The notes: a model not told the origin generated them from the letters alone. A DNA stretch of 64,000 nucleotides from Escherichia coli (GCF_003991155.1 NZ_CP031293.1); one strand, 5' to 3'. Shown: positions 7,545 through 31,636, counted from the first letter of the stretch. Translations and numbers: made by a program.

Positions 7545-8915
7545 TTACTTGTTCAATAACGCAAGGATAAGTTTTGTCTTTTCTTCCATCAGCGGCACAT
7601 CACCGCGCGATTCCACATTCAGGCGCACCACCGGTTCGGTGTTGGAGGAGCGCAGGTTAAAGCGCCAGTCGGCAAAGGTCATGCTGATGCCATCGGTGCG
7701 ATCCACCGCCAGCGCCTCACGGCTAAAATGCTGTTCGACGCGATTAATCGCCTCAGCGGGTTGCGCCAGTTTGCTGTTGATCTCACCGCTTGCCGGAAAC
7801 GCTGCCATCCGGTCGCGCACCAGTTCGCCCAGCGTTTTTCCTTTCAGACACACCAGTTCGGCGACCAGCAGCCACGGGATCATGCCGCTGTCGCAGTAAG
7901 CGAAATCACGGAAATAGTGGTGGGCGCTCATTTCGCCACCGTAGATGGCGTCTTCCTTGCGCATACGTTCTTTAATAAAGGCGTGTCCGGTTTTCGACAT
8001 CACCGGTGTGCCGCCCGCGGCGGTCACCACATCAACGGTATTCCAAGAGAGACGTGGATCGTGGATGATCTTCGCGCCGGGATTTTTTTCGAGGAACGCT
8101 TCTGCCAGCAGGCCGACAATGTAGTAGCCCTCGATAAACTGCCCTTTTTCGTCAAACAGGAAACAGCGGTCAAAATCGCCATCAAAGGCAATGCCCATAT
8201 CCGCGCCGTGTTTAATGACCGCATTGCGGGTGTCGTCGCGACATTCCGGCAGCAGCGGGTTAGGAATACCGTTGGGGAAATTGCCGTCCGGCGTGTTGTG
8301 CACTTTGATCAATTCCACAGGTGCGCCGAGGGCTTTAAAGCGGGCTTCGATAGCGTCCACCACCGGACCCGCTGCGCCGTTCCCGGAGTTGATCACCAGC
8401 TTGAGCGGCGTGAGGTTTTTGACATTGATATAACCGAACAGGTGATCAACGTAAGCGTCACGCAGGTTGATTTGCTGATAGCGACCGCATTTGGTTTCAT
8501 CGACGGGAGGAAAGTCGTTGGCTTCAGCCAGACGCTGGACGTCGCGCAGTCCGGTATCTCCGCTGATCGGGCGAGCCCCCTCGCGAACCAGCTTCATGCC
8601 ATTATAATCCATCGGATTATGGCTGGCGGTAACTTCGATGCCGCCATCCACGCCGAGATGGAACGTGGCGAAATAGATCTCTTCGGTGCCGGACATGCCG
8701 ATATCCAGCACATCGACGCCCGCATCCTGTAAACCTCTCGCCAGCGCCAGTTTTAAGGTTTCGCTGGTGAGGCGGACGTCACCGCCTAACACAATGGTTT
8801 TCGGTTTGAGAAATTCGCCATAGGCGCGACCAATGCGCCACGCAATATCTTCATTCAGTTCTTCGCCTAATTTCCCGCGAATATCATAGGCTTTAAAGCA
8901 GGTTAATTTTTTCAT
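7545..8915 (-). CDS. manB: Phosphomannomutase (O-antigen locus copy)
   Basis: 456-aa ORF with phosphohexomutase active-site loop (TASHNP); near-identical to cpsG at 30266..31636 except mainly at the C-terminus. Confidence 0.9.
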
Positions 8916-8939
8916 ATAAAAACCTTACCAATAATAAAA

Positions 8940-9698
8940 TTATTTATGCGCAAACAATTGCATTAGTTTTGAGATTTTTCTGATAATGATAGCAATTTTC
9001 CAATTTACATTATGGTTTTTCATAACTTCTACAATTTCCTTTGTACTTGATATCGCGTTATCAATTCTGGTACTTTCCCCACCCAATCTCATCTTTACAA
9101 ATACTTGAGGAACATAAATAACTTTAATATCATCACGTTTCAAAATCCTGACCATCTGATCATAGTCTGCAGCAATCCTATAGGATAAATCAAAATATCC
9201 ATCGTCTTTATATAATTCCCTCCTCATATAGAAAGATGGATGCGGTGGTGCCCAGCCTAATGATAGCTTAGAACGTTTAAAAGGACCACTACGCCAGTAT
9301 CGTTTGATTATATCAGTTTGGTTTTTTTCGAAAAAAACCAAATCACCGTATACAACATCCGCTTTTGTCTCATGGAAACGGCTTACAATAGTTTCAATAA
9401 TATCAGGTCTTGCTAAAAGGTCATCAGAATGAACGAATCCAATAATATCTCCCGTAGATAAATTTATACCTTTATTTAAAGCATCATAGATACCGTTATC
9501 GCTTTCTGATAGACATTTGGTTACTCTTGTTGATACTTCGTTAATTAGTTTTAACGTATTATCTGTAGAACCACCATCAATAATTATATACTCTATATCT
9601 TTATAGGTTTGCAACTCTATTGACTCTAAAGTATCCCTTAAAGTCTTTTCACTATTATAAGTCACTGTAATAATACTGACTTTCATTTTAACATCCAA
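8940..9698 (-). CDS. Family-2 glycosyltransferase (WcaE-like), O-antigen cluster
   Basis: 252-aa ORF with GT2 motifs (VTYNSE..., DGGSTDNT, DNGIYDA, SDD); visibly AT-rich; alternative start 12 nt downstream (MKVSIITV). Confidence 0.7.
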   Translation of the reverse strand: MDVKMKVSIITVTYNSEKTLRDTLESIELQTYKDIEYIIIDGGSTDNTLKLINEVSTRVTKCLSESDNGIYDALNKGINLSTGDIIGFVHSDDLLARPDIIETIVSRFHETKADVVYGDLVFFEKNQTDIIKRYWRSGPFKRSKLSLGWAPPHPSFYMRRELYKDDGYFDLSYRIAADYDQMVRILKRDDIKVIYVPQVFVKMRLGGESTRIDNAISSTKEIVEVMKNHNVNWKIAIIIRKISKLMQLFAHK

Positions 9699-9769
9699 TA
9701 ATAATCATAATTAAATAACGTCAGTACAGCATTACGAATAATAATGTTGCATTAGTATCCAGCATCATT

Positions 9770-11170
9770 TTAGATTCTAACAACATCATCTTCATCCAAG
9801 TAGACACCTGAACGTACCTCAATAATCTCCAAAGGGATCTTTCCTGGATTCTCAATAAAATGAGGTACACCTATTGGTATATAAGTTGATTCATTTTCAG
9901 AAACAAGAAATATTTCATCTTCATAATGGACTTTTGCTGTTCCAGAAACAACAATCCAATGCTCAGTACGATGGTAATGAATCTGTTTAGCAGTTTTATG
10001 TCCAGGATGAATAACGACATGTTTAACCTCAAATCGAGATCCTTCCGCTATAGAGTCATGACTGCCCCATGGCCTAAATATTTCACGATGCTGCAGATAT
10101 TCCGTACGGTTATTAACCTTAAGTTTTTCTACAATATTTTTTACCTGTTGAACTTTATCTTTATGCGCAACGAGAATAGCATCTTTAGTTTCAACAACTA
10201 CTAAATCTTTAACTCCTACTACACCAATTAATCTATGTTGTGAGTAAAGATAACTGTCAGAAGAATCATGAATTAATACATCTCCTCTAATTGCATTTCC
10301 ACTTTTATCTTTTCTGCTAATTTCCCATAATGCAGACCAAGAACCAACATCGCTCCAGTGGGCATTTAATGGAACTACCACAGCCTCTGTTGTTTTCTCC
10401 ATAACAGCGTAATCAATGGATTCTTCAGGGCAACAACTAAATGAGTCATTATCTATACGGATAAAATCAAGATCTTGTGTAGAGGACTTCAATGCTTGTT
10501 GGCATATTTTTAGTATGTCTGGTCTAAATTTATTCAACTCATCAATAAACACAGAAGCCCTAAACATGAATATTCCACTATTCCAAAGATAATCTCCATC
10601 TTCAAGATATTTTTTGGCCACATCTAGCTCAGGCTTTTCAACAAAAGCAGAAACTTTAAAACCATATTCATTTAAATTTTCTCCGGTTTTTATGTAGCCA
10701 TATCCAGTTTCGGGTTTGGTTGGCACAATACCAAAAGTTACCAGCTTACCTTCCTCTGCAAATTCTTTTGCAGCCAATATTGACGATATAAAGCGCTTTT
10801 GGTCTTGTATTTCATGATCGGCTGCTAGTACAAGCAGTATTGGATCCTCACCTGATGAAATCGCTTTAAGAGCAGCAAGCGCAACTGCGGGGGCTGTATT
10901 ACGACCTATCGGCTCTAGTAAAATGCCACTATTCGCTAAATTTACATTACGCATTTGTTCTGCAACGATAAAACGATGAACTTCATTACAAATAACCAGA
11001 GCAGGACGATGTTCAACCCCTTCAAGCCTTCTTAAGGTCTCTTGTAGCATAGTCAAACGACTAGTTAACGATAGGAATTGCTTCGGATATAGTGTTCGAG
11101 AAAGTGGCCACAATCTAGTTCCAGAACCACCGGCCATTACAACAGGAAGTAGCATATAAATAACCTTCAC
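9770..11170 (-). CDS. manC: Mannose-1-phosphate guanylyltransferase (O-antigen locus copy)
   Basis: 466-aa ORF with nucleotidyltransferase motif (MAGGSGTRLWPLSR) and C-terminal cupin region; diverged paralogue of cpsB; true start may be the Met 15 nt downstream. Confidence 0.85.
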   Translation of the reverse strand: MKVIYMLLPVVMAGGSGTRLWPLSRTLYPKQFLSLTSRLTMLQETLRRLEGVEHRPALVICNEVHRFIVAEQMRNVNLANSGILLEPIGRNTAPAVALAALKAISSGEDPILLVLAADHEIQDQKRFISSILAAKEFAEEGKLVTFGIVPTKPETGYGYIKTGENLNEYGFKVSAFVEKPELDVAKKYLEDGDYLWNSGIFMFRASVFIDELNKFRPDILKICQQALKSSTQDLDFIRIDNDSFSCCPEESIDYAVMEKTTEAVVVPLNAHWSDVGSWSALWEISRKDKSGNAIRGDVLIHDSSDSYLYSQHRLIGVVGVKDLVVVETKDAILVAHKDKVQQVKNIVEKLKVNNRTEYLQHREIFRPWGSHDSIAEGSRFEVKHVVIHPGHKTAKQIHYHRTEHWIVVSGTAKVHYEDEIFLVSENESTYIPIGVPHFIENPGKIPLEIIEVRSGVYLDEDDVVRI

Positions 11171-11622
11171 TTAAAATAATTTTTTGTGTACTGATGAACT
11201 GAGGAATTAGCTAACAATTCGGCTATATCGAACCAATTGTAAGTACTATGTTGTAGTGTTGGATAGTTAATTTGATGTGGCATCAAACTAATCTCATATC
11301 CGTGTACGACATAATGAGTTGAAAAACAAGTCCCAGAAAAATTGTCGCTGTAGAAATGTTCATAAATCCCAAGAAATTTTGCTTCATTAATGCTAATTTG
11401 AACACCCAATTCTTCTAAAGTAACTCTTTTGAATGCGTTCTCGAAAGACTCATCTTTAAGAATCCGTCCCCCCGGCACAAACCAATAATTTTGTGCTGGA
11501 CGATTAAGGCGCTGACCAAGCAGCGCCTTACCATCTTCGTTTCTTATAATAAGGTCTATCGAGATTAGTGGAGTATGTTCAACTATTGATTTAAATAACT
11601 CTGTTTCTAATCTCTTGTTCAA
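11167..11622 (-). CDS. gmm: GDP-mannose mannosyl hydrolase (Nudix), O-antigen locus copy
   Basis: 151-aa ORF, paralogue of the colanic acid gmm/wcaH (shared YWFVPGGR motif); sits between fcl and manC. Confidence 0.8.
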   Translation of the reverse strand: MNKRLETELFKSIVEHTPLISIDLIIRNEDGKALLGQRLNRPAQNYWFVPGGRILKDESFENAFKRVTLEELGVQISINEAKFLGIYEHFYSDNFSGTCFSTHYVVHGYEISLMPHQINYPTLQHSTYNWFDIAELLANSSVHQYTKNYFK

Positions 11623-11624
11623 TA

Positions 11625-12590
11625 TTAACTCCTAAATGAGTCAAGATTATTTATAAACCATTTATATGTTAATTCTAGTCCTTGTTTTAAATTATAACGA
11701 TATTTCCAACCCAAATTCTCAAGGCGTGTAACATCCATAAGTTTACGAGGCGAACCATCTGGTTTTGTTATATCAAAAACAATTTTTCCATCATAGCCAA
11801 CAACTAAAGCCATTGTTTCTGCCATTTCACGTATGGAACAATCAACACCAGTACCTACGTTAATATGAGATAACATTGGTTGAGTATTTTTTTTATAAAT
11901 TTCATCATCAAGCTCCATCACATATACTGATGCAGCGGCCATATCATCAACATATAAAAACTCGCGTTTTGGAGTTCCCGTTCCCCAGACAACCACTTCA
12001 TTTAAACCAAGTTCCTTTGCTTCATGAAAACGCCGCATAAGCGCTGGAATTACATGTGAGTTATTGGGATGAAAATTATCATTCATACCATATAAGTTAG
12101 TAGGCATTACACTGCGATAATCACATCCATATTGGCGATTATAAGATTCACATAGCTTTATACCTGCTATTTTGGAAATAGCATAAGGCTCATTAGTAGG
12201 CTCAAGAGTTCCCGTCAAAAGTGCAGATTCTTTCATTGGCTGTTCTGCAAACTTTGGATAGATACAACTTGACCCTAAGAATAATAGTTTCTTTATGCCC
12301 GCTTTGTAAGATGAGTGAATAATATTGCTTTCAATAAGAAGGTTCTGATAAATAAATTCAGCTGGAAAAGTGTTATTAGCATGAATTCCTCCTACTTTTG
12401 CTGCTGCAAGGTAAACCTGATCTATTCTCTCTTGCTCAAAAAAACATTCAACATCCTTTTGAACTGTCAAATCGAGTTCTTTGTGAGTTTTGACAATTAA
12501 CTCAACATCATTACGTGCTAATAATTGACGACAAATAGCAGAACCAACCATCCCACGATGTCCAGCCACAAAAATTCGCTTCTTGGTCAT
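11625..12590 (-). CDS. fcl: GDP-L-fucose synthase (O-antigen locus copy)
   Basis: 321-aa ORF ([19 protein letters not shown]...) clearly paralogous to the fcl at 34970..35935. Confidence 0.9.
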
Positions 12591-12593
12591 ACT

Positions 12594-13715
12594 TTAACGC
12601 TCCAAAGAGACTGCCACGTCAAAACCATGGCTTTTAAGAAGTGCATGCTGTTTAGCTTTTTCTAAATCACTAGCCACCATTTCTGCACACATTTCTTCAA
12701 CTGTAATCTCTGGCTCCCAACCCAAGACATTTTTTGCTTTTGTTGGATCACCAAGAAGAGTTTCAACTTCTGCTGGTCGAAAATAACGAGGGTCAACGCG
12801 AACAATAACATCACCAATATTAACACCAACGGCGCAATCTGATGTTTTATTTACAACAAATGCAATCTCATCAACACCAGTACCGGAAAACTCAAGTTCA
12901 AGTCCAACTTCTTTAGCAGACATACGGACAAATTCACGTACAGATATTTGTTTGCCGGTGGCAATAACAAAGTCTTCTGGCTGGTCTTGTTGAAGCATCA
13001 TCCATTGCATACGAACATAATCTTTCGCATGCCCCCAATCGCGTAAAGAATCCATGTTGCCAAGATATAAGCATTTTTCTATTCCCTGCGATATATTAGC
13101 TATAGCACGTGTGATTTTACGTGTTACAAACGTTTCCCCACGACGTGGGGATTCATGATTGAACAAAATACCGTTACATGCATACATTCCATAAGACTCA
13201 CGATAGTTTACAGTGATCCAATATGCATACAGTTTAGCTACGGCATAAGGTGAACGAGGATAGAACGGCGTTGTCTCTTTTTGTGGAACTTCCTGAACTA
13301 ATCCATACAATTCAGAGGTTGACGCCTGATAAAATCGGGTTTTTTTTTCTAATCCCAAAAAACGAATAGCTTCCAATAATCGTAAAGTACCTATAGCATC
13401 AACATCAGCTGTATATTCTGGGGATTCGAAGGAAACAGCTACGTGACTCATTGCGCCAAGATTATAAACTTCATCAGGTTGAACTTCAGATAATATCCGA
13501 GTCAAATTAGAAGTATCTGTTAAATCACCATAATGAAGTTGTAATTTTAAATTACGATGGTGTGGGTCTTGATATATATGATCAATACGGTCAGTATTAA
13601 ACAAGGAAGATCGACGTTTTATTCCATGAACCTCATAGCCTTTTTTAAGCAGAAATTCTGCCAAGTAGGAACCATCTTGCCCGGTAATTCCTGTAATTAA
13701 AGCTTTCTTACACAT
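12594..13715 (-). CDS. gmd: GDP-mannose 4,6-dehydratase (O-antigen locus copy)
   Basis: 373-aa ORF ([17 protein letters not shown]...) highly similar to the colanic acid gmd at 35938..37059. Confidence 0.95.
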
Positions 13716-13725
13716 AAATAACCTC

Positions 13726-14733
13726 TCAAAACTTAGATAGTGATTTATATAGATTATATGTTTCGGAGAAACACTTCCCCCATGAAAATTTATTAGATTG
13801 CGCTAATCCTTTATTTTTTAATTCATTAGCGTTAGCTTCTACACTTAATAAAGCTGAGAATAAACTTTCAATTGATACTTCTTCGACTAAAATCGCACTA
13901 TCCCCCACAACCTCGGGTATTGATGATCTATTTACGGCTATCACAGGACAGCCAGTTCGCATAGCCTCAAGCAAGGGAATTCCAAACCCTTCATATTCTG
14001 AAGGATAGATTAAGCAATAAGCCGAATTATATAATATATTTAGTTTTTCATTTGATACCTTCCCTAAGTACTGGAATCTTTCTGGAAGATATTCAGATAG
14101 TAACTTCATTTCTGCTTTATTTAAACCACCTCCGCCGACTATTTTAAGATTAGTATCAAAAAGTTTAGAAATGGCTTTAACTGCAAGCTCAAAATTTTTA
14201 TATCCTGAACGAGCACCGACAAAAAGCACAAAATTTTCTTTTTCTAGATTTAAGTGTCTATAATCTTCCGATACACCATTATGAATAACATGTATCTTTT
14301 TTTCATCAACCTTAAAGAAATTAATTAAATCCTTGGCTGTATTATTAGAGACACAAATGATTGCATCGCTATGTTTCACAGCCCATCTTTTTTGTAAGCT
14401 ATGAACATTGCGCCGAAGTCCTTTCATATACAATTCATATGTGAAATCGTGGACCGTGGTCACAACCGCATATTCCCCATCTTTCGGAACCCGATAATAT
14501 GTAGAATGAAATATACTGTAATCTGAATCACTTTTTAATGCTTCAAAACATCTATATCGTTCTAAAAACCGGCATGGCCGATGGAGATCATCATTGTGAT
14601 TTTCATTTTTATCATTAAATTGAATGAACTTGTATTCGTCATTTTTTAATCTCTTAATGATTTCTTCAAAGTATACAGTGATACCACCATATGATTGTAA
14701 ACTTTTCACAATCCCATCATATAATATTTTCAT
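13726..14733 (-). CDS. Family-4 (GT-B) glycosyltransferase, O-antigen cluster
   Basis: 335-aa ORF with C-terminal [13 protein letters not shown] motif typical of GT4 enzymes; AT-rich. Confidence 0.7.
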
Positions 14734-14801
14734 TTTTTGTTTTCATATATATAGATAACAATACAGTAAGCAATGAAATGGATGATTATAATTGTTTCAA
14801 T

Positions 14802-15818
14802 TTACTCTTTATATCCATTTGGATTCATTGTTTGCCATCTCCATGCATCTTCCACCATATTATTAAGAGTCCTTTTAGCAACCCAACTTAGCTGCTCGTT
14901 TGCTAAGGAAGGATCGGACCAACATTCAGCCACATCTCCATTTCGCTCAGAAACGATACGGAAAGGTATATCGCGTCCTGTTTCCAGTTTAAAAGCGTCG
15001 ATGATATCTAACACACTATAACCTTGACCAGTGCCTAAATTAAAAACTTTAAGCCCCTGGTTTCTATTGAGATTTTTTAAAGCGGCAAGATGCCCCTCAA
15101 CTAAATCGACTACATGGATATAATCTCTTACACCTGTTCCATCTTTTGTCATATATTTATTACCAAAAACATTTAGATAGGGTAATTTTCCAATTGCGAC
15201 TTGCGCAACATAGGGAAACAGGTTATTAGGAGTTCCTAAAGGATCTTCTCCAATTAATCCAGTCTCATGAGCACCTACAGGATTAAAATATCTTAGTATT
15301 GTGATATTTGCGTCGCTATTCGCGTTACAAAAATCACGCAATATATGTTCCACCATAAACTTTGAACGACCGTACGGATTGATCACCTCACCGACAGGGT
15401 GTTTTTCAGATATTGGAACATAATGAGGATTGCCATAGACAGTAGCAGACGAACTAAAAATTAGATTAGAAATATTCGCTTTCTGCATTTCATCAAGTAA
15501 TATTAGAGTCCCCAAAAGATTTGTGTCGTAATATTCTAATGGTTTTTTAATGGACTCGTTAACAGATTTTAAACCCGCAAAATGCATTACAGTAGAAACA
15601 TTATATTTTGAAAAGATATTTTTTAATATATGTCTATCTCTAATATCACCACGTAATTTTTTTATCTTAGATAAGCAAATTTCCTCTACTCGTTCTAGAG
15701 ATTTTGGAGAGGAATTGCAATAATTATCTAGCGATATAACATCATATCCATTTTGCAATAAAGTTAATATAGCATGTGAGCCAATATAGCCAGCCCCACC
15801 AGTCACAAGTATGCTCAT
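14802..15818 (-). CDS. UDP-hexose / UDP-N-acetylhexosamine 4-epimerase (GalE family)
   Basis: 338-aa ORF with N-terminal TGGAGYIGSH Rossmann motif and overall GalE-like layout; embedded in the O-antigen cluster; substrate not determinable from sequence. Confidence 0.85.
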   Translation of the reverse strand: MSILVTGGAGYIGSHAILTLLQNGYDVISLDNYCNSSPKSLERVEEICLSKIKKLRGDIRDRHILKNIFSKYNVSTVMHFAGLKSVNESIKKPLEYYDTNLLGTLILLDEMQKANISNLIFSSSATVYGNPHYVPISEKHPVGEVINPYGRSKFMVEHILRDFCNANSDANITILRYFNPVGAHETGLIGEDPLGTPNNLFPYVAQVAIGKLPYLNVFGNKYMTKDGTGVRDYIHVVDLVEGHLAALKNLNRNQGLKVFNLGTGQGYSVLDIIDAFKLETGRDIPFRIVSERNGDVAECWSDPSLANEQLSWVAKRTLNNMVEDAWRWQTMNPNGYKE

Positions 15819-15838
15819 ACTTTAATAGCTCCAATACC

Positions 15839-16906
15839 TTAATTTTCTTGACTATTGGCTCGATTGATCAAACTCATCCACTGAGCACTAACTATTTCTT
15901 CTGTATAATGTCTATTCACGAATAGGAATCCTGCATTTCCGTGTTCGGTTCGTTTAACATTATCTTCAAAGTAAGTTAGTTTTTCCTGAAATTCAATTTG
16001 AGATTGACACACAAATCCGCCACCCGATGAAGAAATCACGCTACTTGTCCCTCCAGATATATCCATTGAAATTACAGGTAATCCGTAGGACATAGCTTCA
16101 AGTATTGTAACAGGAAAACATTCAAAGTATGAACCGGATACAAAAACATCACTTTTTGCCAAAAAAACATCTGTGTTTAAACTCGGTCCATGAAAGTGTA
16201 TTTGGTTGTTATTCTTATATTTAGATTTGAGATACTCCAGCTCTTGACCACCTCCTACAATGTGTAAAACATACTTTTTTGTAGACGGGTGATTTATTAC
16301 TGCATTAATTAACCTTTCAACTCCTTTATCTTTAACAATCCGACCAATATAAATCAAATCAAGAGTTTCTTTTCCTTGATGTATGCGCTTATATTTTTGC
16401 GTTTTGATTGAATTTGGTATAATTACAACCCTTTTACAAAAAGTAAACTTATCTTTTTCCTTGTGAGAATTACAAACTACTACAGCTTTTTTATTAAGAG
16501 ACAAAAGAAATTTAAATACTTTTCTCCAAAAAATACTATTCTTGTCAAATGGATAATGTTCCCAGCAAATAATTTTATTCTTATTATACCGAAAAAAACC
16601 AATCAATAACAATAATGATGATGTAGCTATATCCGTGGAAATTATTAATTCAAGGTCTTTACTTTTGGCACTCAAAAAAAACAAATATTTAATGTAAAAC
16701 CTTAATTTGCTTTCTTCATATGCAGTATTGTCTTGGAATAAGTAGGTTTTCCGATTATCTTCTCTAACTTGTATCTCTTGTGCGTTTATTGCTGAAAAAC
16801 ATCTCACTTGTAGGCTGTTTTTAGTTAATATATCAATTAGATTTTCAACTGCTTTCTCAGTGCCACCTATTTTATTTTCATACAGCTTAAAGACTCCAAT
16901 GGACAT
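15839..16906 (-). CDS. Family-4 (GT-B) glycosyltransferase, O-antigen cluster
   Basis: 355-aa ORF with GT4-type C-terminal motif (FECFPVTILEAMSYGLPVIS). Confidence 0.7.
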   Translation of the reverse strand: MSIGVFKLYENKIGGTEKAVENLIDILTKNSLQVRCFSAINAQEIQVREDNRKTYLFQDNTAYEESKLRFYIKYLFFLSAKSKDLELIISTDIATSSLLLLIGFFRYNKNKIICWEHYPFDKNSIFWRKVFKFLLSLNKKAVVVCNSHKEKDKFTFCKRVVIIPNSIKTQKYKRIHQGKETLDLIYIGRIVKDKGVERLINAVINHPSTKKYVLHIVGGGQELEYLKSKYKNNNQIHFHGPSLNTDVFLAKSDVFVSGSYFECFPVTILEAMSYGLPVISMDISGGTSSVISSSGGGFVCQSQIEFQEKLTYFEDNVKRTEHGNAGFLFVNRHYTEEIVSAQWMSLINRANSQEN

Positions 16907-16907
16907 T

Positions 16908-21375: not shown

Positions 21376-21617
21376 TATTTTCCTACCTCTAAGTGACTGA
21401 TAGTGCGTAAATTATTGCCATAGATTAGCCAAACGGTATGGCTATATACCAAAGCTTAGTTCCGCATAACTTTGATTAAACCTTGCGATAACACTACACA
21501 CCATCAGCATCTGGGTTACTCGGATTACTCGGAATTCCGCATACTGATAATTTAATCAGTACCTCTTTCCGAATAATCGTAGTCCAACCTGGTCCTTTTT
21601 TCTCTGACTCGTCTGCA

Positions 21618-22613: not shown

Positions 22614-22770
22614 AAATCACTTTAGTCTGGTTGTTACGTAAGAAACACAAGATAAAGATGAGTACCTTCTCTGAGTAGTCAATGCTGCCCAGCCCCAGCT
22701 TTAACAGTTAGTGTGAGGATTATAATCTTTTAGAACATTATATCCAGTAAGTTTATGAATGGTCGCAAAT

Positions 22771-24165
22771 CTACTCCCTCCGTTCCGGCAATCTAAAGTT
22801 AATCTTCTCCACATTAACAATATGGTGATTAATCCTGTCGATATCGACGGAGCTTTGCCCTTTTTCATTCACTGCATGAATATTCGTGAGTGAAAGCAGC
22901 GTTTTACGCTTTGCCATAAAAACGCCTCGAACGTCTTTGCGCATGTCAAAGTTCATGCTCAATGCGGGTCCAACTGAGGATTCCTGCATCACATTGATAT
23001 TTCGCATAAAAAGATGTTGCGGTTTGTTGTGTAACTCCAGCGACGCACGCTTCATCTCAATGTTAGTCAGCGCCACAAAGGAGACAGCATTCCCGGCGGA
23101 GATTTGAATGCCGCGCAATTTATAAGCAAGATGAGTATTATCCAGTTGAATATCATTCACTCGGAAATTCTGCGGTATCGAGAGATATTTGCCTTTAATT
23201 ACCCCATAGCCGATTAACATCCCGGCACTATTAATCATTTCAATATTATCAATCACAAAGTTGTCACAACCATAAATAGCAACTGTGGCGTTATCAATAC
23301 CTGCTTTCTTACTGAAATCCGGCGTGATATTACGAGCTTTGATATTACGGATAACAAAATGTTTACCATTTTCAACATGGATCAGTTGCCGACAATCCGA
23401 TCCCGTGATATTCGCCACGACAAAGTTTTTCACTGCCTGGTTTTCCGGATAATTATTATCGTAGGTACTTCCCGCAAGGCCTATGCCGATGCCCCAGTTG
23501 ATTTTGCCGTTGGTACAGTTAATGCGCTCAATGAGATGGTCGGATATCAAAATATCACTGTCGTTAATCGCCACGTTCCATTCAATAGCGTCGCCCTGTA
23601 AGTCGCTGAACTTACAGTTGGTGATGTTGGCACCGATTATCTGGTTATGAAATCCCTGGCGTAAGATGGCGTAATTAGCGTGGCTAACGGTCAGGTTATC
23701 GATGGTCAGGTTGTGCATGACCCGTTTGTTTTTGCCGCCGATATAAATCTGCGTTACCGGACCAAAGCCGCTCATCGCCAGCCCTTTGATGGTGCAGTCA
23801 GAACCACGCACATCCAGGGTGATGTTATGCATACTGCCGCCCTCCTCCCCTGTCACCTGGCTGCCGTCCTGTAAGACAAATCGCCCTCTGCCGTTGCCGC
23901 GCAGGCTTCCAAGGATGTGTAACGTTTTACCTGCAGGAATGAAGATGCCGGTGTTGATATTGTCACAAACCAATCCGGCAGGCACGACGACCGTTTGCCC
24001 TTCGCTGAAGGCTTGTTTAAATGAGGCGATCCAGTCGTGAGGGTTGTAGTCGTTAATGTTAACGCTTTGTTGAGCGGGAAGTGCGCGGGCGAAAGGCGTA
24101 TGGAGGAAGGCAAGCACAGAGCTTGCCGTCAGGAAGGTGCGTCGGGAGAGTTTTTTAAATGGCAT
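22771..24165 (-). CDS. wcaM: Colanic acid biosynthesis protein WcaM
   Basis: 464-aa ORF with Tat-like signal ([15 protein letters not shown]) and repeat-rich body; last gene of the colanic acid cluster. Confidence 0.9.
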
Positions 24166-24175
24166 GCGTTCTCCT

Positions 24176-25396
24176 CTATAAAGCCTGCAGCAAGCTGGCG
24201 AGTTCTCGATTGATCACCTGCTGGTTAAAATCGTGTTCGACTTTTTCGCGAGCACGTTTGATAACCGGAGCCAGTTCGTCGGTGTCCAGTTGGCTAAACG
24301 CCGCCAGTCGTTGCGCCAGTGCGCGAGCATCGTTCTCAGGCACCAACCAGCCGGATTTATCGGCCTCCACCAGTTCAGGAATTCCGCTATGCAGAGTAGA
24401 AACCACCGGAATGCCGACCGCCATCGCTTCCATTAGCGCCACCGGAATGCCTTCCATATCGCCGTCCGCACCCGTTACCGAAGGCAGCAGGAAAACATCC
24501 GCGTCGTCTAGCATCGCTTTCACTTCGTGGCTCGGTTTAAAGCCCGGCATCTCTACCACATCTTCCAGTTGATATTGTTCGATGAGGGTGCGCAGGCGTC
24601 GTTCCCACGGGCCAATGCCGAGGATGCGATAGCGAAATGCCACGCCCTGCTCTTTCAACTGACGGCAGGCTTCGATCGCCACATGCAGGCCTTTTTTCTC
24701 GGTTAAGCGTGCGACGGAAATGATTTCCAGCGGTGTTGCGGGCGCTTTCACCGGACGCGGGCTAAAGCGCGTCATGTCCACGCCCATGCGCGATACGGCG
24801 ATTTTTTCCCTCGGGCATCCCATTTTTTGCAGCCTTCCGGCCCACAGATCGCTGATCGGTAGCATCAGGTCGCCACGGCGGAACAGTTGCTGATATTCGG
24901 GAGTGTAGTGGTTGAGCACTTCCCGACTGGAGATATCAATGCCGTGGAAGATAGTAGCGATTTTGCCGCGAATGATACCCAGTTCCCGTAGTTTTGCTGC
25001 GATTACCCCCGCAGGGCCAAAATGAGCGATAAAGACATCGGCATAAAATGGTGTTGCGACCTGGCCGCAAATGGCAGACAAAATCAGGTTCCGCGACTCA
25101 GCACCATAGCGTTTGAGGTTGAGCGCCTGCCAGGTATTTTTACGATGAATGCCGCGTAAGGTCTGGCTGGCGCGGTGGCGCAGTTTCGCCACTTTGCCCG
25201 TAGGTTCGTCCTGTAACCAGCGGGTTCTGGCGGCAAGGTTATATTTTGTCCATGCCGCGTGGGTGTTTTGTGTGTCGCCTTTTTGCAGCGCGACAATCTC
25301 CACCTCAAAGCCCATATCAATAAACGCGGTAATTTGATTGAGGACGAAGGTTTCCGACGACAGTGGAAATTTCAGTAAAAAGAAGCCGACCTTCAT
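24176..25396 (-). CDS. wcaL: Colanic acid glycosyltransferase WcaL
   Basis: 406-aa GT4-type ORF in conserved order. Confidence 0.9.
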
Positions 25397-26673
25397 TTCG
25401 CCTCCCCGATGCGTTCAAGCACAGATTTCACCATCTGCATTCCCGTCTGACGTTCGCGACTGACGGCTTCGTTAAGTCGCGTGTTCAGTGCCGGAAGCTG
25501 GCCTAAGGTATCCGCAACCATCGCTTGCAGGCTGCCGTCTAATAAATGACGGATATCAATTGCCATCTCTGGTAGCCCCAGTTGTTGCATAATCCCGGCG
25601 GATTTATGTTCATAGTTGATGGCAATCGCCGGAGTGGCAAAGTTCATCGAGATAATGGCAGAGTGCAGGCGCGTACCGACGGTGAGTTCACAGGCCCCCA
25701 GAATTTTGCCCATTTCCAGATCGTTGAGTTCATCCATCACCACGTGGTAACGGGCAGGATCGCTGATGTGCTGGCGAAGATTGAGCGCCACCATGCGGTC
25801 GTCTTTGTTATAGCTGTCGATGCCCGTACAGGTGGAAAGCGCAATCACCTGATACCCTTCGTCGAGAATGCGATTGACCACCCCGGCAAAGGCTTTTTCA
25901 TACGCTTGCTGAGTGGTGCCGAGACGTTTGTCGAACGGTGCCAGTTCGCGCAGGGTAATTGCTACCGTTTTCTGTTGTGCGGCAACGTCCAGCCAGTGTT
26001 GAACGGCATAGCTGGCGGTGAAGTCTTCTGTGTGGTGATCGACCAGCCACGCAGTATCGACGCCATGTTCGACTTTTGCGGTGGTGATATTGCTGCGTTT
26101 CATCAGTTCAAGGCTGACCGATTCGCGCAGGATCAGCGCGTCGCAGTGACCAAAAACGTAGTTCGCCAGTTGGTTAAATTGCTCATCCTGGAATGGACCA
26201 ACGCTGTGACCAATCATAAATAGCGGCTTTTTCGCCATGAAAGTGCAAAGCGCGTGTTCAAACTGCGGCACGCCGTAGAGATCGACAAAAAACGATCCGC
26301 CGACCTGAATAATGGCGTCGTAACCTGACAGCAGGCGCACGAAGTCAGTGAATCCCTGAGCGATGGCGATATTACGCAGCTTGCCAGTGTCGGTGACGCG
26401 TGAGAGCAATACCTGATGCTGATAGCGGCGACGGAGGACTTTTTTAACGCGCCCGACAACGCCCGCCGCGCTGTTGTGTTTTTTCATTTGCAGGAACAGC
26501 GGATCGCCCATTACCGGGCGGTTGAGCAGCCAGGAAGAACTGACCGGATAGCGGCTCATCACGTCCACTTCGGCATGTGGATTGAGGATATTGATGGCAT
26601 CAAGTAAGCCACGCAGGATGGCGCTATCGCCACGATTGCCGCAAGTGTGGTTGCCCAGAATAAGTAATTTCAT
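25393..26673 (-). CDS. wcaK: Colanic acid pyruvyl transferase WcaK
   Basis: 426-aa ORF (MKLLILGNHTCGNRGDSAIL...), polysaccharide pyruvyl transferase-like. Confidence 0.9.
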   Translation of the reverse strand: MKLLILGNHTCGNRGDSAILRGLLDAINILNPHAEVDVMSRYPVSSSWLLNRPVMGDPLFLQMKKHNSAAGVVGRVKKVLRRRYQHQVLLSRVTDTGKLRNIAIAQGFTDFVRLLSGYDAIIQVGGSFFVDLYGVPQFEHALCTFMAKKPLFMIGHSVGPFQDEQFNQLANYVFGHCDALILRESVSLELMKRSNITTAKVEHGVDTAWLVDHHTEDFTASYAVQHWLDVAAQQKTVAITLRELAPFDKRLGTTQQAYEKAFAGVVNRILDEGYQVIALSTCTGIDSYNKDDRMVALNLRQHISDPARYHVVMDELNDLEMGKILGACELTVGTRLHSAIISMNFATPAIAINYEHKSAGIMQQLGLPEMAIDIRHLLDGSLQAMVADTLGQLPALNTRLNEAVSRERQTGMQMVKSVLERIGEAK

Positions 26674-26734
26674 TTTTTCCTCATAAATTTGATGCCAGGT
26701 GAGGCTGTGTTTGTTGTGTTCGTTGCCGTTTTTT

Positions 26735-27312
26735 GCCTGATGCGACGCTAACGCGTCTTATCAGACCTACAAGATCCGAGCACAGAACCGTAGGACGGAT
26801 AAGGCGTTCACGCCGCATCCGGCATTCAGTGCCTGATGCGACGCTGACGCGTCTTATCAGGCCTACAAGACCCGAGCACAGAGCCGTAGGACGGATAAGG
26901 CGTTTTACGCCGCATCCGGCATTCAGTGCCTGATGCGACGCTGACGCGTCTTATCAGGCCTACAAGATCCGAGCACAGAACCGTAGGCCGGATAAGGCGT
27001 TTTACGCCGCATCCGGCATTCAGTGCCTGATGCGACGCTGGCGCGTCTTATCAGGCCTACAAGACCCGAGCACAGCCCCCCAGGACGGATAAGGCGTTTT
27101 ACGCCGCATCCGGCATTCAGTGCCTGATGCGACGCTGACGCGTCTTATCAAGCCTACAAGATCCGAGCACAGAACCGTAGGCCGGATAAGGCGTTTTACG
27201 CCGCATCCGGCATTCAGTGCCTGATGCGACGCTGGCGCGTCTTATCAGGCCTACAAGACCCGAGCACAGCCCCCCAGGACGGATAAGGCGTTTTACGCCG
27301 CATCCGGCAACC
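26735..27312. repeat. Tandem array of about six REP/BIME-like palindromic units (~100 bp each)
   Basis: Repeated gcctgatgcgacgctgacgcgtcttatcaggcctacaag...ccgtaggacggataaggcgtt[tc]acgccgcatccggcattcagt with small variations, between wcaK and wzxC. Confidence 0.9.
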
Positions 27313-27336
27313 GTTGCCGGAACCGAAAACAGCCAT

Positions 27337-28815
27337 TCACCCCGCCCGTAAAAGCATTTTCATTTTTTCGCTGCGACAAAACTGACGCTTCACTTCCACT
27401 ACCAGCGGATGGCGTGACAGCACAATCATCACCACAAACGCCAGCACGCCCGCGGCTATTTGCACCGCCAGCAGCATGCCCAGAGCCATTTGCCCTTTCA
27501 GTACAATGCCCAGCGCATAACTGACCACCAGCGTCGGCAGCGAGAGATAAAACGGCAGCCATAAACTGAGGATGTACTGGCGATAACTGGAACCAAGAAC
27601 CGGTTTAATCATCACGAAGTAACTCAGAATGGTGTTGATAATCTGCACCAGCAGGAAACCGAGCGTGACGCCGATTGCGCCCGCCATCTGCCCACCAATA
27701 ACAATCGCCGGAATAAACAGAAAGGTTTTGAATACGTTGAATTTAAAGCTGATATCGACCCGCGCTTTCGCCATCAGCAGCGAACCAATCGGGTTCCCTA
27801 CTGAGCGCAGCAGCCCCACCACACACAGCAATTGCAGCACCGGAATAATGCTGCTCCACTTCTCACCAAAGACCAGCGGTACAAAGTTATTCGACACCAC
27901 CATCAGCCCCAGCAGCGCCGGAAAGTTGATAATCCCCACCACCGACAGCAGCTTGTAGAAGTTGATGCGCAGCTTTTCGGTGTCGTCCTGAATTTTGGCA
28001 AATGCCGGAAACAACACGCGGGTGATGATCGGATTCAGCTTCATCGGCGGCACAACGGCCACGTTGTACGCCAGGTTGTATCCCCCTGCCACGCCCGCAC
28101 CGAGAATACGCGCCAGCACCAGCGTTGAAAGGTTGGTGTTGAGATAGTTGATGATGCTGTCCGCCGTCAGCCAGGCACCAAAGCGTAAGTTCGGTGCCAC
28201 CGACGCCAGCGAGAAGTGCAGACCGGGGCGATAAATTTTGCGGCCAAAGTAGCCAAACAGCAGCGTTCTTACCGCACTATTGACCAGATAACCGAGGATC
28301 GCGGTCATCGCCAGTGGCCAGAAATGGGCGCTAACCACCGTAAAAGTGAAGCCCGCCAGCACCGCGCTGGTTTCGATCATGCCGATTTTGTTGAACTCCA
28401 GCTCTTTTTGCATCAACGCGCGGAACTGCTGCCCGTGGGGGATCACCACAAACGCCAGCGACAATGTTTTAATCAACGGTGCCAGGTCTGGGTTGTTCAG
28501 CACGTCACCAATGAGATCACTCAACAAAAACACCGCCACGCACACCACAAGCCCCAGCCCGACGTTCAGCCAGTACAACGTGGTAAGTTCCAGGTGACTG
28601 ATTTCTTTTCGCTGAATAATCGAGTTAGCGATACCGAAGTCAGAAAGCGTATCTGCCAGCGCGATGATCACCAGCGACACGGTAAGCAAACCGAACTGGT
28701 GGTTGTCGATAATCCGCGCCAGCACGGTCATCTGCACCAGCCCGAGGCCGATGATGATCACCGTGGCAATCGCCGACCACTTCGCGCCGCTGATGGTTTT
28801 TTCACGTAAGCTCAT
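27337..28815 (-). CDS. wzxC: Colanic acid repeat-unit flippase
   Basis: 492-aa polytopic membrane ORF in conserved position. Confidence 0.9.
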   Translation of the reverse strand: MSLREKTISGAKWSAIATVIIIGLGLVQMTVLARIIDNHQFGLLTVSLVIIALADTLSDFGIANSIIQRKEISHLELTTLYWLNVGLGLVVCVAVFLLSDLIGDVLNNPDLAPLIKTLSLAFVVIPHGQQFRALMQKELEFNKIGMIETSAVLAGFTFTVVSAHFWPLAMTAILGYLVNSAVRTLLFGYFGRKIYRPGLHFSLASVAPNLRFGAWLTADSIINYLNTNLSTLVLARILGAGVAGGYNLAYNVAVVPPMKLNPIITRVLFPAFAKIQDDTEKLRINFYKLLSVVGIINFPALLGLMVVSNNFVPLVFGEKWSSIIPVLQLLCVVGLLRSVGNPIGSLLMAKARVDISFKFNVFKTFLFIPAIVIGGQMAGAIGVTLGFLLVQIINTILSYFVMIKPVLGSSYRQYILSLWLPFYLSLPTLVVSYALGIVLKGQMALGMLLAVQIAAGVLAFVVMIVLSRHPLVVEVKRQFCRSEKMKMLLRAG

Positions 28816-28816
28816 A

Positions 28817-30211
28817 TCAATATGCCGCTTTGTTAACGAAGCCCTTGAATACCGTCAGGAAAACGATTTTGATATCGAACCAGACGCTCCATTCGCGGAT
28901 GTACTCAAGGTCGAACTCGACGCGTTTTTCCATTTTCTCCAGCGTGTCGGTTTCGCCGCGCCAGCCGTTAATCTGCGCCCAACCGGTAATGCCCGGTTTC
29001 ACTTTATGGCGCAGCATGTAGCCTTCAATGAGCTGGCGATACTGTTCGTTATGCGCCACCGCGTGCGGACGTGGACCGACAATCGACATCCCCCCGGTCA
29101 GCACATTGATAAACTGCGGCAATTCATCCAGCGAGGTGCGGCGCAGAAAGTTCCCCACTTTGGTGACGCGCGGATCGTTCTGCGTCGCCTGGGTCACCAC
29201 TTTGTCGTTCTCCATCACTTTCATGGAACGGAACTTCCACACTTTGATCGGCTTGCCATCCATGCCGTAGCGAGTCTGGCGAAAAATAACCGGCCCTGGT
29301 GAACTGAGTTTTACCGCCAGCGCAATACAGCACAGCACCGGGGAGATCAGCAGCAGAATAAGCGTTGCCAGCACAATATCTTCCGCACGTTTGAGCAGGC
29401 GGTTTACCCCGGAAAGTGGCGTGTCATACAGCGGCACCACCGGAACGCCGTTCATCTCTTCGAGACGTGAATGGAGAATGTTGAAGGTAAAGACATCGGG
29501 GATCAGCAGCACCGAACAGGTGGTGTCCGCCAGTTGATGGACCAGTTTTTTTACTCGTGCGCCGTCGCACATCTGCATCGCGATATAGACGTTATGAATC
29601 TTGCCCGCTTTCGCATCCTCGACCAGCTGTTGCAGATTGCCCGCCCAGTCGTTAGAAACGCCGCCCGGTTTTGGGTCGTGGTAAACGCCCACCACTTCAA
29701 ACCCTAACCACGGCTGATTACGGAAGCTCTCAAGCAGCATTTGTCCGGCGGCTAAATCCCCCGCCACCGCGACCATGCGCTTGTTATAGCCATGATTACG
29801 CAGCCAGCCCGCCCCAATGCGAATACATGAACGGCAAACCACCAGTCCGATACTGGTCAGCCCATACCACGCCAGCCAGATTTTCAGTTGCGTGTCGAAA
29901 TCATTGTTGAACGCCACCAGTCCAGCGCTGAAAATCACGCTTAAGGTCCAGTTTTGTAGCAACAGGGCAAATTCTGTCGCTGCCCGAACACCGCGCCATG
30001 AGCGATAAAAATCGGTGATGCCGCCCAGCATCTGGAACACCACCAGCGTAATCAGTGCCACCAACAGGTGCATGTAGAGGAATGACAGTCCGCTGACTTC
30101 GCAAACCAGCCATAGTCCGGCAAACATGATGGTGATATCTGAAAAGCGTTGCACCATAGAGATTAACGATGCATTGGTTTTCGCTCGCTCGCGCTTTTTT
30201 AGATTTGTCAT
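28817..30211 (-). CDS. wcaJ: Undecaprenyl-phosphate glucose-1-phosphate transferase (colanic acid initiating transferase)
   Basis: 464-aa ORF with N-terminal TM segments and C-terminal sugar-transferase domain (PGITGWAQ). Confidence 0.9.
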   Translation of the reverse strand: MTNLKKRERAKTNASLISMVQRFSDITIMFAGLWLVCEVSGLSFLYMHLLVALITLVVFQMLGGITDFYRSWRGVRAATEFALLLQNWTLSVIFSAGLVAFNNDFDTQLKIWLAWYGLTSIGLVVCRSCIRIGAGWLRNHGYNKRMVAVAGDLAAGQMLLESFRNQPWLGFEVVGVYHDPKPGGVSNDWAGNLQQLVEDAKAGKIHNVYIAMQMCDGARVKKLVHQLADTTCSVLLIPDVFTFNILHSRLEEMNGVPVVPLYDTPLSGVNRLLKRAEDIVLATLILLLISPVLCCIALAVKLSSPGPVIFRQTRYGMDGKPIKVWKFRSMKVMENDKVVTQATQNDPRVTKVGNFLRRTSLDELPQFINVLTGGMSIVGPRPHAVAHNEQYRQLIEGYMLRHKVKPGITGWAQINGWRGETDTLEKMEKRVEFDLEYIREWSVWFDIKIVFLTVFKGFVNKAAY

Positions 30212-30265
30212 CGTTGTTCCTGTTATTAGCCCCTTACCCGCAGTGTGGTAAGGGAAGATCCGACA

Positions 30266-31636
30266 TTACTCGTTCAGCAACGTCAGCAGAGTTCGCGTTC
30301 GCGCTTCCATCAGCGGCACATCACCGCGCGATTCCACATTCAACCGCACCACCGGTTCGGTGTTGGAGGAGCGCAGGTTAAAGCGCCAGTCGGCAAAGGT
30401 CATGCTGATGCCATCGGTGCGATCCACCGCCAGCGCCTCACGGCTAAAATGCTGTTCCACGCGGTTAATCGCCTCAACGGGTTGCGCCAGTTTGCTGTTG
30501 ATCTCACCGCTTGCCGGAAACGCGGCCATCCGGTCGCGCACCAGTTCGCCCAGCGTTTTTCCTTTCAGGCACACCAGTTCGGCGACCAGCAGCCACGGGA
30601 TCATGCCGCTGTCGCAGTAAGCGAAATCACGGAAATAGTGGTGGGCGCTCATTTCGCCACCGTAGATGGCGTCTTCCTTGCGCATCCGTTCTTTAATAAA
30701 GGCGTGTCCGGTTTTCGACATTACCGGCGTACCGCCTGCGGCAGTCACCACATCAACGGTGTTCCAGGAGAGACGTGGATCGTGGATGATCTTCGCGCCG
30801 GGATTTTTTTCGAGGAACGCTTCTGCCAGCAAACCGACAATGTAGTAACCCTCGATAAACTGCCCTTTTTCGTCAAACAGGAAACAGCGGTCAAAATCGC
30901 CATCAAAGGCAATGCCCATATCCGCGCCGTGTTTGATGACCGCATTGCGGGTGTCGTCGCGACATTCTGGCAGCAGCGGGTTAGGAATACCGTTGGGGAA
31001 ATTGCCGTCCGGCGTGTTGTGCACTTTGATCAATTCCACAGGTGCGCCGAGGGCGTTAAAGCGGGCTTCGATGGCGTCCACCACCGGACCCGCCGCTCCG
31101 TTCCCGGAGTTAATCACCAGCTTGAGCGGCGTGAGGTTTTTGACGTTGATATAACCGAACAGGTGATCAACGTAAGCGTCACGCAGATTGATTTGCTGAT
31201 AGCGACCGCGTTTGGTTTCATCGACGGGAGGGAAGTCGTTGGCTTCTGCCAGACGCTGGACATCGCGCAGTCCGGTATCACCGCTGATCGGGCGGGCCCC
31301 CTCGCGCACCAGCTTCATGCCGTTATAATCCATCGGGTTATGGCTGGCAGTAACTTCAATGCCACCATCCACACCAAGATGGAACGTGGCGAAATAGATC
31401 TCTTCGGTGCCGGACATACCAATATCCAGCACGTCGACGCCCGCATCCTGTAAACCTTTCGCCAGCGCCAGTTTTAAGGTTTCGCTGGTGAGGCGGACAT
31501 CACCGCCTAACACAATGGTTTTCGGTTTGAGAAATTCGCCATAAGCGCGACCAATGCGCCAGGCAATATCCTCATTCAGTTCTTCGCCTAATTTCCCGCG
31601 AATATCATAGGCTTTAAAGCAGGTTAATTTTTTCAT
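30266..31636 (-). CDS. cpsG: Phosphomannomutase (colanic acid locus copy)
   Basis: 456 aa from MKKLTCF (ORF track extends 16 codons further upstream); near-identical to manB at 7545..8915. Confidence 0.9.

Follow-up and report, generated by a model that had tools for sequence, protein, structure and literature searches.

The manB gene of the Escherichia coli O11 antigen cluster: a chimera probably shaped by old, recurrent recombination with colanic acid cpsG

How does a gene of colanic acid type come to lie within an O-antigen cluster of very different base composition, and is its presence there the outcome of a recent event? This question is raised by the window, i.e. the whole stretch of 64,000 nucleotides analysed here, which, in an O11 strain of E. 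coli, extends across the region his-gnd-O antigen-galF-colanic acid and contains two phosphomannomutase genes, manB in the O-antigen cluster and cpsG in the colanic acid cluster. Our data show that manB is a chimera, in which a body from the cpsG allele pool is joined to a locus-specific tail, and suggest that it very probably owes this structure to old and recurrent ectopic recombination with cpsG which has not been recent in O11.

Anatomy of the two gene copies

The features concerned are the following:

7545..8915, minus strand: O-antigen manB of serogroup O11, chimeric in structure, with an intact ORF for a 456-aa phosphomannomutase
7583..8915, minus strand: cpsG-type body of manB (CDS nt 1-1333, ~55% GC), with 49 mismatches to the resident cpsG
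7545..7582, minus strand: 3' tail of manB, specific to the O-antigen locus (CDS nt 1334-1371, a 12-residue peptide, 29% GC)
7382..7544, no strand: AT-rich manB-gnd spacer, kept together with the tail across serogroups
8940..20109, minus strand: low-GC (26-39%) serogroup O11 genes including the O11-family wzx and wzy (GC by gene; PGAP names)
30266..31636, minus strand: cpsG of the colanic acid cluster, an ORF between cpsB and wcaJ (NF011943; annotation of an identical genome)
8916..31636: deletable interval of 22,721 bp, made up of one copy of the repeat and the sequence that separates the two

The two genes, offset by 22,721 bp, can be aligned with no gap and differ at 66 of 1371 nucleotides (95.2% identity), and their products at 11 of 456 residues (97.6% identity), namely R60K, C143R, K194N and A387V plus seven within the last 12 residues (445-456). 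An initial annotation had described two 456-residue genes on the minus strand at exactly these coordinates, with about ten residue differences mostly in the last 12 or so, and it was accurate on both points as well as in the C-terminal peptides that it quoted. Within the first 1333 nt, i.e. the body, manB is 96.3% identical to the resident cpsG, and 44 of the 49 differences are at third codon positions (dS 0.16, dN 0.004, dN/dS 0.024). Identity begins 2 nt 5' of the ATG and drops sharply past CDS nt 1333. In the tail, 17 of 38 positions are mismatched (55% identity) with a GC content of 29% in manB versus 55% in cpsG, and the flanks of the two genes are unrelated (~25% ungapped identity). Thus, manB ends in locus-specific sequence that is not of cpsG type, and the junction that had been predicted near its 3' end is sharp and lies at CDS nt 1333/1334. 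The 5' junction of O11 manB is confined to the range from -3 to +65, and manB 5' ends vary by serogroup within the first ~15 nt. The claim of near-identity up to the start codon holds for its extent, which even includes 2 nt upstream, but the term is too strong for a body with 49 differences.

In its composition, manB fits the colanic acid cluster rather than the O-antigen genes around it: its GC content of 54.9% is close to that of cpsG (55.4%), whereas that of its O-antigen neighbours is 26-39%, and its GC3 is 0.64 versus 0.23-0.30 in these co-transcribed genes. The body of manB is of cpsG type inside a cluster of 26-39% GC. The other paralogue pairs are AT-rich on the O-antigen side and clearly diverged, as the initial annotation had stated, with nucleotide identities of 61% for manC/cpsB, 54% for gmm/wcaH, 65% for fcl and 70% for gmd, and GC3 values of 0.23-0.30 (O-antigen) versus 0.61-0.67 (colanic acid) for these four pairs. 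The pairwise alignment that it had proposed as a check, with 95.2% identity and a breakpoint at nt 1333/1334, thus sets manB/cpsG apart from this 54-70% range. In the O11 cluster, manB is the only colanic-acid-like gene, manC being just 61% identical to cpsB.

Both proteins match the family model NF011943 ('phosphomannomutase CpsG') over residues 1-456 of 456, with 1049 bits for ManB and 1056 bits for CpsG at a cut-off of 801. Four motifs are intact at the same positions in both, i.e. TASHNP (96) and DGDFDR (245), the catalytic phosphoserine loop and the metal-binding loop of the alpha-D-phosphohexomutase superfamily, as well as GEMSAHH (327) and RSSNTEP (422), its sugar-binding and phosphate-binding loops. 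By its sequence, the chimera should be functional, and 97.6% identity to CpsG together with a dN/dS of 0.024 suggests that ManB converts mannose-6-P to mannose-1-P.

Exchange between the loci within and beyond E. coli

Do manB and cpsG then represent separate lineages or a common allele pool? In a population sample of seven manB/cpsG pairs (O11, O62/O68, O6 with two strains, O7, O157 and one further serogroup), the 7+7 alleles had 170 segregating sites, of which 53 are polymorphic at both loci and none is a fixed difference between them, i.e. in this small sample of seven pairs they show the pattern of continuing exchange. With an Snn of 0.61 (p = 0.17), the two loci are thus not differentiated.

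Salmonella (L010) and Citrobacter freundii (L011) have clusters orthologous to that of O11 (gmd-fcl-gmm-manC-GT2-manB-gnd). As cpsG comparators from a confirmed colanic acid context, two read-archive contigs were used, whose genus is assigned by similarity only, L015 grouping with CpsG of Salmonella and L014 with that of Citrobacter. With genus so assigned, the manB body goes with the cpsG of its own species and not with the orthologous manB of other species: nucleotide identity to same-genus cpsG is 96.2% in E. coli, 92.6% in Salmonella (L015) and 93.6% in Citrobacter (L014), whereas either E. coli gene, manB or cpsG, matches the Salmonella and Citrobacter bodies at only ~80-82%. For the proteins, identity to CpsG of the same genus is 97.5% (Salmonella) and 96.6% (Citrobacter). 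The cpsG tails group together at 84-87%, the manB tails of all three genera read MEEKT(K/Q)..IL.LL.K, and the Citrobacter junction also lies at nt 1333/1334. Taken together, 0 fixed differences, 53 shared polymorphisms and genus-matched bodies point to an exchange between the loci that would be both old and recurrent, and genus-specific bodies with a conserved junction are a clean illustration of concerted evolution—though of no new principle.

The same 3' junction occurs in at least four other serogroup clusters (O6, O7, O62/O68 and one more) and in C. freundii, and therefore long predates the O11 lineage. The O11 tail is likewise found in O62/O68, O6, O7 and one further serogroup cluster, and the first 80 nt past the manB stop codon are near-identical in five serogroups. 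Such a common junction, along with the substantial divergence of the O11 pair, could also mean that cpsG was captured by, or duplicated into, the O-antigen locus just once and long ago, after which the copies diverged independently without further exchange. This seems unlikely, however, since such copies would not be expected to have 53 polymorphisms in common and no fixed difference, and since a capture before the split of the genera would group the manB bodies across genera, which instead are genus-specific.

A low-GC native manB with an EEKTK tail was sought in the orthologous Salmonella and C. freundii clusters and not recovered, as their manB bodies are already high in GC and of own-genus type. 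With no low-GC 'native' manB of an O11-type cluster found in any of the three genera, it is the tail and the neighbouring genes which suggest that such a gene once occupied the position of O11 manB and was replaced.

The initial annotation had interpreted the mosaic as conversion of manB by cpsG, and the cpsG-type body agrees with this; what finds no support in our comparisons is a recent conversion by the cpsG of the same genome. That the O11 strain's or lineage's own cpsG overwrote manB shortly before sampling would fit the high similarity of the two genes beside the other paralogue pairs, and also a marginal tendency of same-strain pairs to be closer than random pairs (46.7 versus 49.1 mismatches, p = 0.03), with each copy being the other's closest partner in an O6 pair (32 mismatches) and in the O62 pair (39). 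Yet the O11 pair, with its 49 mismatches and a dS of 0.16, is at the mean (the O157 pair has 50 body mismatches), and its resident cpsG is no closer than cpsG from unrelated strains: the cpsG genes of 4677 E. coli genomes are 95.2-97.7% identical to the O11 manB body, a range which includes the resident gene at 96.3%. The closest relative of the body is instead the manB of E. coli W (serogroup O6) with 99.0% identity (13 mismatches). Between these two strains, the tail is identical and the spacer has 1 mismatch in 163 nt, while gnd has 51 differing sites. The O11 allele is common to the O6 strain as a ~1.7 kb block that extends from the manB body through tail and spacer into the beginning of gnd. 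Moreover, the O11 genomes listed do not differ in manB, except for 2 private SNPs in the window. Recent conversion by the resident gene is therefore very unlikely. The comparison of manB alleles across serogroups that had been suggested thus revealed a junction and a tail common to several clusters, but placed the nearest allele in O6 manB and not in the resident cpsG.

In the O11 lineage, the last exchange is accordingly not recent, nor is the resident cpsG identifiable as the donor. As no cpsG with more than 97.7% identity to O11 manB was found among 5426 complete genomes, no donor can be named. Because the O11 pair is at the mean and the same-strain excess is marginal, intragenomic conversion is not separable from exchange via DNA of other strains. 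Mismatches in the O11 pair were not significantly clustered (maximum chi-square over segments with third-position-aware permutation; 67/500), and this pair thus shows no internal mosaic.

As the enzyme is essential, the genes might be thought to owe their similarity to purifying selection and codon usage without any recombination, and a dN/dS of 0.024 does indicate strong constraint. This is scarcely credible, however, as ~90% of third positions in the body still match cpsG although most differences lie at such positions, as manB departs in GC3 from its co-transcribed neighbours and as the transition is sharp at either end of the gene. An assembly artefact, i.e. a collapsed or copied repeat, can be excluded for the window, since the two-copy arrangement recurs in 65 independent complete O11-type genomes that cover at least 80% of the O-antigen stretch, 15 of the 15 records listed match this stretch at full length with 100% identity, and 66 sites distinguish the copies. 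For the deletion genomes described below, a 1.3-kb repeat might in principle have collapsed, but these come from independent assemblies and their O157 hybrid has a clean single crossover; an artefact has next to no probability overall. Chance is ruled out by 1.3 kb at 95% identity.

The most likely mechanism would thus be ectopic homologous recombination (gene conversion) between colanic acid cpsG and O-antigen manB, presumably of the RecA type. In the Enterobacteriaceae, this exchange would be old and recurrent, keeping the manB body homogenized with the cpsG of the resident species, and conversion tracts would stop where homology ends, i.e. at the tail and the first few codons. GC content suggests transfer from cpsG to manB, with the reverse direction also possible.

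Deletion between the copies

As the initial annotation had pointed out, manB and cpsG are direct repeats ~22.7 kb apart and as such a deletion substrate. Both are on the minus strand and share 16 identical runs of at least 30 nt, the longest comprising 116, 113, 86 and 86 nt. Unequal recombination between them would remove 22.7 kb in one step and abolish both O antigen and colanic acid, as the interval contains the genes for GT2, manC, gmm, fcl, gmd, GT4, galE, GT, wzy, GT2, wzx, galF, gne, wcaM, wcaL, wcaK, wzxC and wcaJ (annotation of an identical genome). In the window, both copies and the entire interval are present, which makes it a substrate for the deletion and not an instance of it.

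Deletions were sought with a synthetic junction query in 5426 complete genomes and counted only at a coverage of at least 95%. A gnd-hybrid-cpsB product was found in eight of these, at a single place each, and was confirmed in the six that were opened; these genomes are independent complete assemblies from four backgrounds. In O157:H7 strain 7.1_Anguil, the hybrid is a clean single crossover, i.e. equal to O157 cpsG up to nt 1122 and to O157 manB from nt 1123, without a mismatch on either side. A wider set of 78 genomes with at least 80% coverage of the junction query was rejected, since ~70 of them have normal O75 clusters with a cpsB-like manC. No deletion derivative with an O11 background was seen among the 5426 genomes, and none of the deletion products examined has the O11-type tail.

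It is tempting to think of the repeat as being maintained as a contingency deletion, which, under pressure from phages or immunity, would allow O antigen and colanic acid to be lost together in one moderately frequent step, with nt 1333/1334 as a selected boundary, e.g. protecting the gnd promoter region or a locus-specific C-terminal helix. We regard this as quite improbable. Deletions in four natural backgrounds and in seven lines of the long-term evolution experiment (LTEE), as well as a junction conserved from E. coli to Citrobacter, are in line with it, but none of them demonstrates selection for the repeat itself.

Known systems and significance

In Salmonella enterica, O-antigen clusters reportedly contain a colanic-acid-like manB and sometimes also such a manC. 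O11 is similar in that a high-GC, cpsG-like manB lies in a low-GC cluster, which in Salmonella is put down to colanic acid genes having been captured or having recombined with it. Exactly this pattern is seen in the orthologous cluster of Salmonella that we compared with O11. Unlike in some S. enterica clusters, the O11 manC is not colanic-acid-like, and O11 also differs in this respect from E. coli O75, where manC is cpsB-like too.

For O157, replacement of manB by the colanic acid gene has been described and gene conversion invoked (Samuel et al. 2004, cited and extended in Iguchi et al. 2011, PMC3158064), and by the latter's account of the gene, O157 manB is >95% identical to cpsG and varies more than the other parts of the cluster, with no positive selection (PMC3158064). 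With 50 versus 49 body mismatches, the O157 and O11 pairs are alike. O157 manB, however, ends in a different tail (EKKTKALLKLLSE), with an ISAs1 remnant and perB lying 3' of the gene, whereas O11 manB adjoins gnd directly and has a tail and spacer in common with the O6, O7 and O62/O68 clusters.

The deletion has precedents as well. According to a summary in PMC7685785, the O14 type strain lost its O-antigen cluster via recombination between two manB genes (Jensen and Reeves 2004), and in the LTEE with E. coli B, seven manB-cpsG recombination deletions (delta-4) of ~23 kb were observed (Raeside et al. 2014, PMC4173774). As in the window, with its spacing of 22,721 bp, these involve direct repeats of ~96% identity at a distance of ~23 kb. 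What they leave is gnd-hybrid gene-cpsB without the O-antigen genes and wcaJ to wcaM, and our eight genomes are further natural examples. In contrast to these strains, the deletion has not happened in the O11 window.

Overall, a cpsG-like manB generated by inter-locus recombination and the deletion that can result from it are thus already well documented (Salmonella, O157, O14, E. coli B), and the O11 manB leaves current understanding unchanged. For O11, the chimeric anatomy of manB accounts for the two 'cpsG' labels that annotation pipelines assign in this serogroup and in roughly one in five E. coli genomes (PGAP names manB 'cpsG' in an identical O11 genome) and for the poor value of manB as a serogroup or phylogeny marker. 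It also explains how a single 22.7-kb deletion can give rise to rough, colanic-acid-negative variants, and it predicts the exact deletion junction that would be expected in untypeable (O-rough) isolates of O11.

Two phosphomannomutase genes in an O11 strain

Matches covering 80% or more of the stretch 7400–21400 occur in 65 complete E. coli genomes; the match is full-length at 100% in 15 of the 15 records listed, and the PGAP label for wzx and wzy in the matching records listed is 'O11 family'. This match and the order of genes in an annotated copy therefore show that our finding concerns an O11 strain, at its loci for O antigen and colanic acid.

Gene order in the annotated copy NZ_CP029747
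First part: hisIE, wzzB, ugd, gnd
O-antigen part: manB (labelled cpsG), GT2, manC, gmm, fcl, gmd, GT4, galE, GT, wzy, GT2, wzx
Colanic acid part: galF, gne, wcaM, wcaL, wcaK, wzxC, wcaJ, cpsG, cpsB, wcaI, gmm, fcl, gmd, onward

Features in the window
7545–8915, minus strand: manB, O-antigen phosphomannomutase gene
30266–31636, minus strand: cpsG, its colanic acid paralogue
26710–27423: wcaK–wzxC spacer, array of about seven REP/BIME-like units with a 97-bp period
31718–31832: cpsG–cpsB spacer, one unit related to that array
61696–63157, plus strand: five SIB RNA antitoxin copies in tandem, 328 bp apart (Rfam RF00113, 139–150 bits)

On the strand opposite the SIB copies there are Ibs-like toxin ORFs (MMK...). 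As K-12 has two SIB copies here (sibA and sibB), the locus looks like an expanded type I toxin–antitoxin array. Variable REP insertions have been described at exactly the wcaK–wzxC and cpsG–cpsB spacers (Iguchi 2011, PMC3158064).

Both phosphomannomutase ORFs are intact, encode 456 residues as the initial annotation had read them, and give a gap-free alignment at a distance of 22,721 bp. With 66 of 1371 nt mismatched (95.2% identity), the strong similarity that it reported is confirmed, but 95–96% is too low for its term 'near-identical'. Its estimate of about ten residue differences, mostly C-terminal, comes close to the 11 counted, of which the last 12 residues hold 7, and the C-terminal peptides that it quoted match the translations exactly. 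Identity begins 2 nt 5' of the ATG and stops after CDS nt 1333, in keeping with the proposed junction near the 3' end. Of the 49 differences within the 1333-nt body, 44 fall at third codon positions (dN 0.004, dS 0.16), and the last 38 nt, here termed the tail, carry 17 more, with a GC content of 29% in manB versus 55% in cpsG. Overall, manB has 54.9% GC versus 26–39% in its neighbours, and the other O-antigen genes are indeed AT-rich and diverged, the four fucose-pathway paralogue pairs sharing only 54–70% nucleotide identity. ManB and CpsG both score far above the cut-off of NCBIfam NF011943 (CpsG) and keep all four phosphohexomutase loops.

Age and recurrence of the probable exchange

Of the proposed conversion of manB by cpsG, the cpsG-type origin and the 3' junction stand, but a recent event within this genome does not. 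Compared with the manB body, the cpsG genes of 4677 E. coli genomes show 95.2–97.7% identity, a range in which the resident cpsG (96.3%) is unremarkable, i.e. no closer than the cpsG of unrelated strains. The body is instead closest, with 13 mismatches, to the manB that E. coli W and strains derived from it carry in an O6-family cluster; the E. coli W tail is identical, the 163-nt manB–gnd spacer has one mismatch, and 51 sites differ in the neighbouring gnd. Window 7256–8915 thus forms a block of about 1.7 kb, 99% identical to E. coli W and comprising the manB body, tail, spacer and first approximately 125 nt of gnd, beyond which gnd differs by 3.6%. This pattern argues that the block has moved between serogroups as a unit, and that manB acts like a piece of the flank at which the O-antigen locus recombines. 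Judged against the O11 reference NZ_CP029747 and all 13 other alleles compared, the window manB also has two private C-to-T changes, at 8489 and 8601 (CDS nt 427 and 315), the former resulting in R143C. Because of the cpsG range, the closeness to E. coli W, the block transfer and the private changes, we reject recent conversion by the resident cpsG. Between E. coli W and another O6 strain, divergence is about 2% in wzx and wzy, drops to 0.76% in manC and then rises abruptly to 3.5% in manB and 3.7% in gnd, with the step at the manC/manB border.

For a population comparison, manB and cpsG were taken from seven genomes (O11, O62/O68, one further serogroup, two O6, O7 (E. coli B) and O157).

Mean body mismatches, first six pairs of the seven-genome set
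manB to manB: 48.6
cpsG to cpsG: 46.3
manB to cpsG of different strains: 50.2

The distance is just marginally smaller within strains than between random pairs (46.7 versus 49.1 mismatches, p = 0.03). Among the 7+7 alleles there are 170 segregating sites, no fixed differences and 53 shared polymorphisms, and Snn is 0.61 (p = 0.17), i.e. the loci are not differentiated. These values argue that manB and cpsG draw on a single allele pool, which requires repeated exchange between the loci. One capture of cpsG by the O-antigen locus, followed by independent divergence, is very improbable in view of the absence of fixed differences and the 53 polymorphisms shared between loci. Tail and downstream spacer are common to O11, O62/O68, the further serogroup, O6 and O7, and O157 manB has a tail of its own. 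The first four to five manB codons vary by serogroup (MKK, VND, MQK, MSS, ML, MKS).

Repeated exchange would also account for what is seen across genera. Colanic-acid-like manB was reportedly found in many Salmonella O-antigen clusters by Jensen and Reeves in 2001. In Salmonella enterica and Citrobacter freundii the GT2 gene immediately 5' of manB has orthologues with 63% and 73% amino-acid identity, respectively, and both species keep the order gmd-fcl-gmm-manC-GT2-manB-gnd. There, manB has 60% (Salmonella) and 56.5% (Citrobacter) GC next to a GT2 of 31–32%. The manB bodies are 92.6% (Salmonella) and 93.6% (Citrobacter) identical in nucleotides to cpsG on read-archive contigs assigned to genus by similarity only, on which cpsG lies in colanic context, between cpsB and wcaJ-wzxC-wcaK; to E. 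coli manB/cpsG they are only 80–82% identical. Salmonella ManB is 97.5% identical in amino acids to the main Salmonella CpsG cluster. The manB tails of all three genera read MEEKT(K/Q)..IL.LL.K and are 40–55% identical to cpsG tails, which are themselves 84–87% identical between genera, and Citrobacter and E. coli share the position of the junction, nt 1333/1334. A low-GC native manB body was not recovered in E. coli, Salmonella or Citrobacter. Bodies that track the host genus and ends that track the locus point to concerted evolution, in which ectopic recombination between the loci would leave the junction fixed where homology ends.

The repeats as a deletion substrate

Between the window copies, identical runs reach 116, 113, 86 and 86 nt, well above the length generally held to be needed for RecA-dependent recombination. 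A junction query (gnd, spacer, manB tail, hybrid body, cpsG upstream region, cpsB) was found in one place at a coverage of at least 95% in 8 of 5426 complete genomes; the loss product predicted by the initial annotation thus exists in other E. coli, and none from an O11 background was seen among these 5426. All six genomes opened (NZ_LR536431, NZ_HG994851, NZ_CP128888, NZ_CP069459, O157:H7 7.1_Anguil and JNEC-KY173 of O75 background) have the order gnd-(perB or wzx where applicable)-hybrid gene-cpsB-wcaI and lack the O-antigen genes, galF and wcaM to wcaJ. In 7.1_Anguil the hybrid is a clean single crossover, with no mismatch to O157 cpsG through nt 1122 or to O157 manB from nt 1123 onward.

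Another approximately 70 matches at a coverage of at least 80% were rejected as deletions, being ordinary O75 clusters whose manC is cpsB-like as well. In the O75 cluster, e.g. of E. coli MCJCHV-1 (contig L019, 17070–21601), manC (cpsB-like by megablast) and manB are both of colanic acid type, and wzx sits between manB and gnd; JNEC-KY173 and SCU-176, of O75 background, carry the manB/cpsG deletion with only wzx kept. In NZ_LR536431 (contig L007, 2900–5327), ugd is split by IS3 and wcaE has an internal stop, which suggests that surface-polysaccharide genes went on decaying once the deletion had occurred.

Precedents

In O157, manB shares more than 95% identity with cpsG, compared with 95.2% in O11, and varies more than the rest of its cluster, with gene conversion given as the best explanation (Iguchi et al. 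2011, PMC3158064); for the replacement of this manB by the colanic acid copy, Samuel et al. 2004 is cited there. In the long-term evolution experiment with E. coli B, seven independent manB–cpsG recombination deletions of about 23.3 kb arose between genes 96% identical (Raeside et al. 2014, PMC4173774), compared with an offset of 22,721 bp and 95.2% in O11. The initial annotation was correct in its cpsG-type origin, 3' junction and deletion potential. The manB–cpsG exchange, however, is most likely old and repeated, not a conversion that took place recently in this genome, and O11 adds a further example of a phenomenon that is already known and documented.
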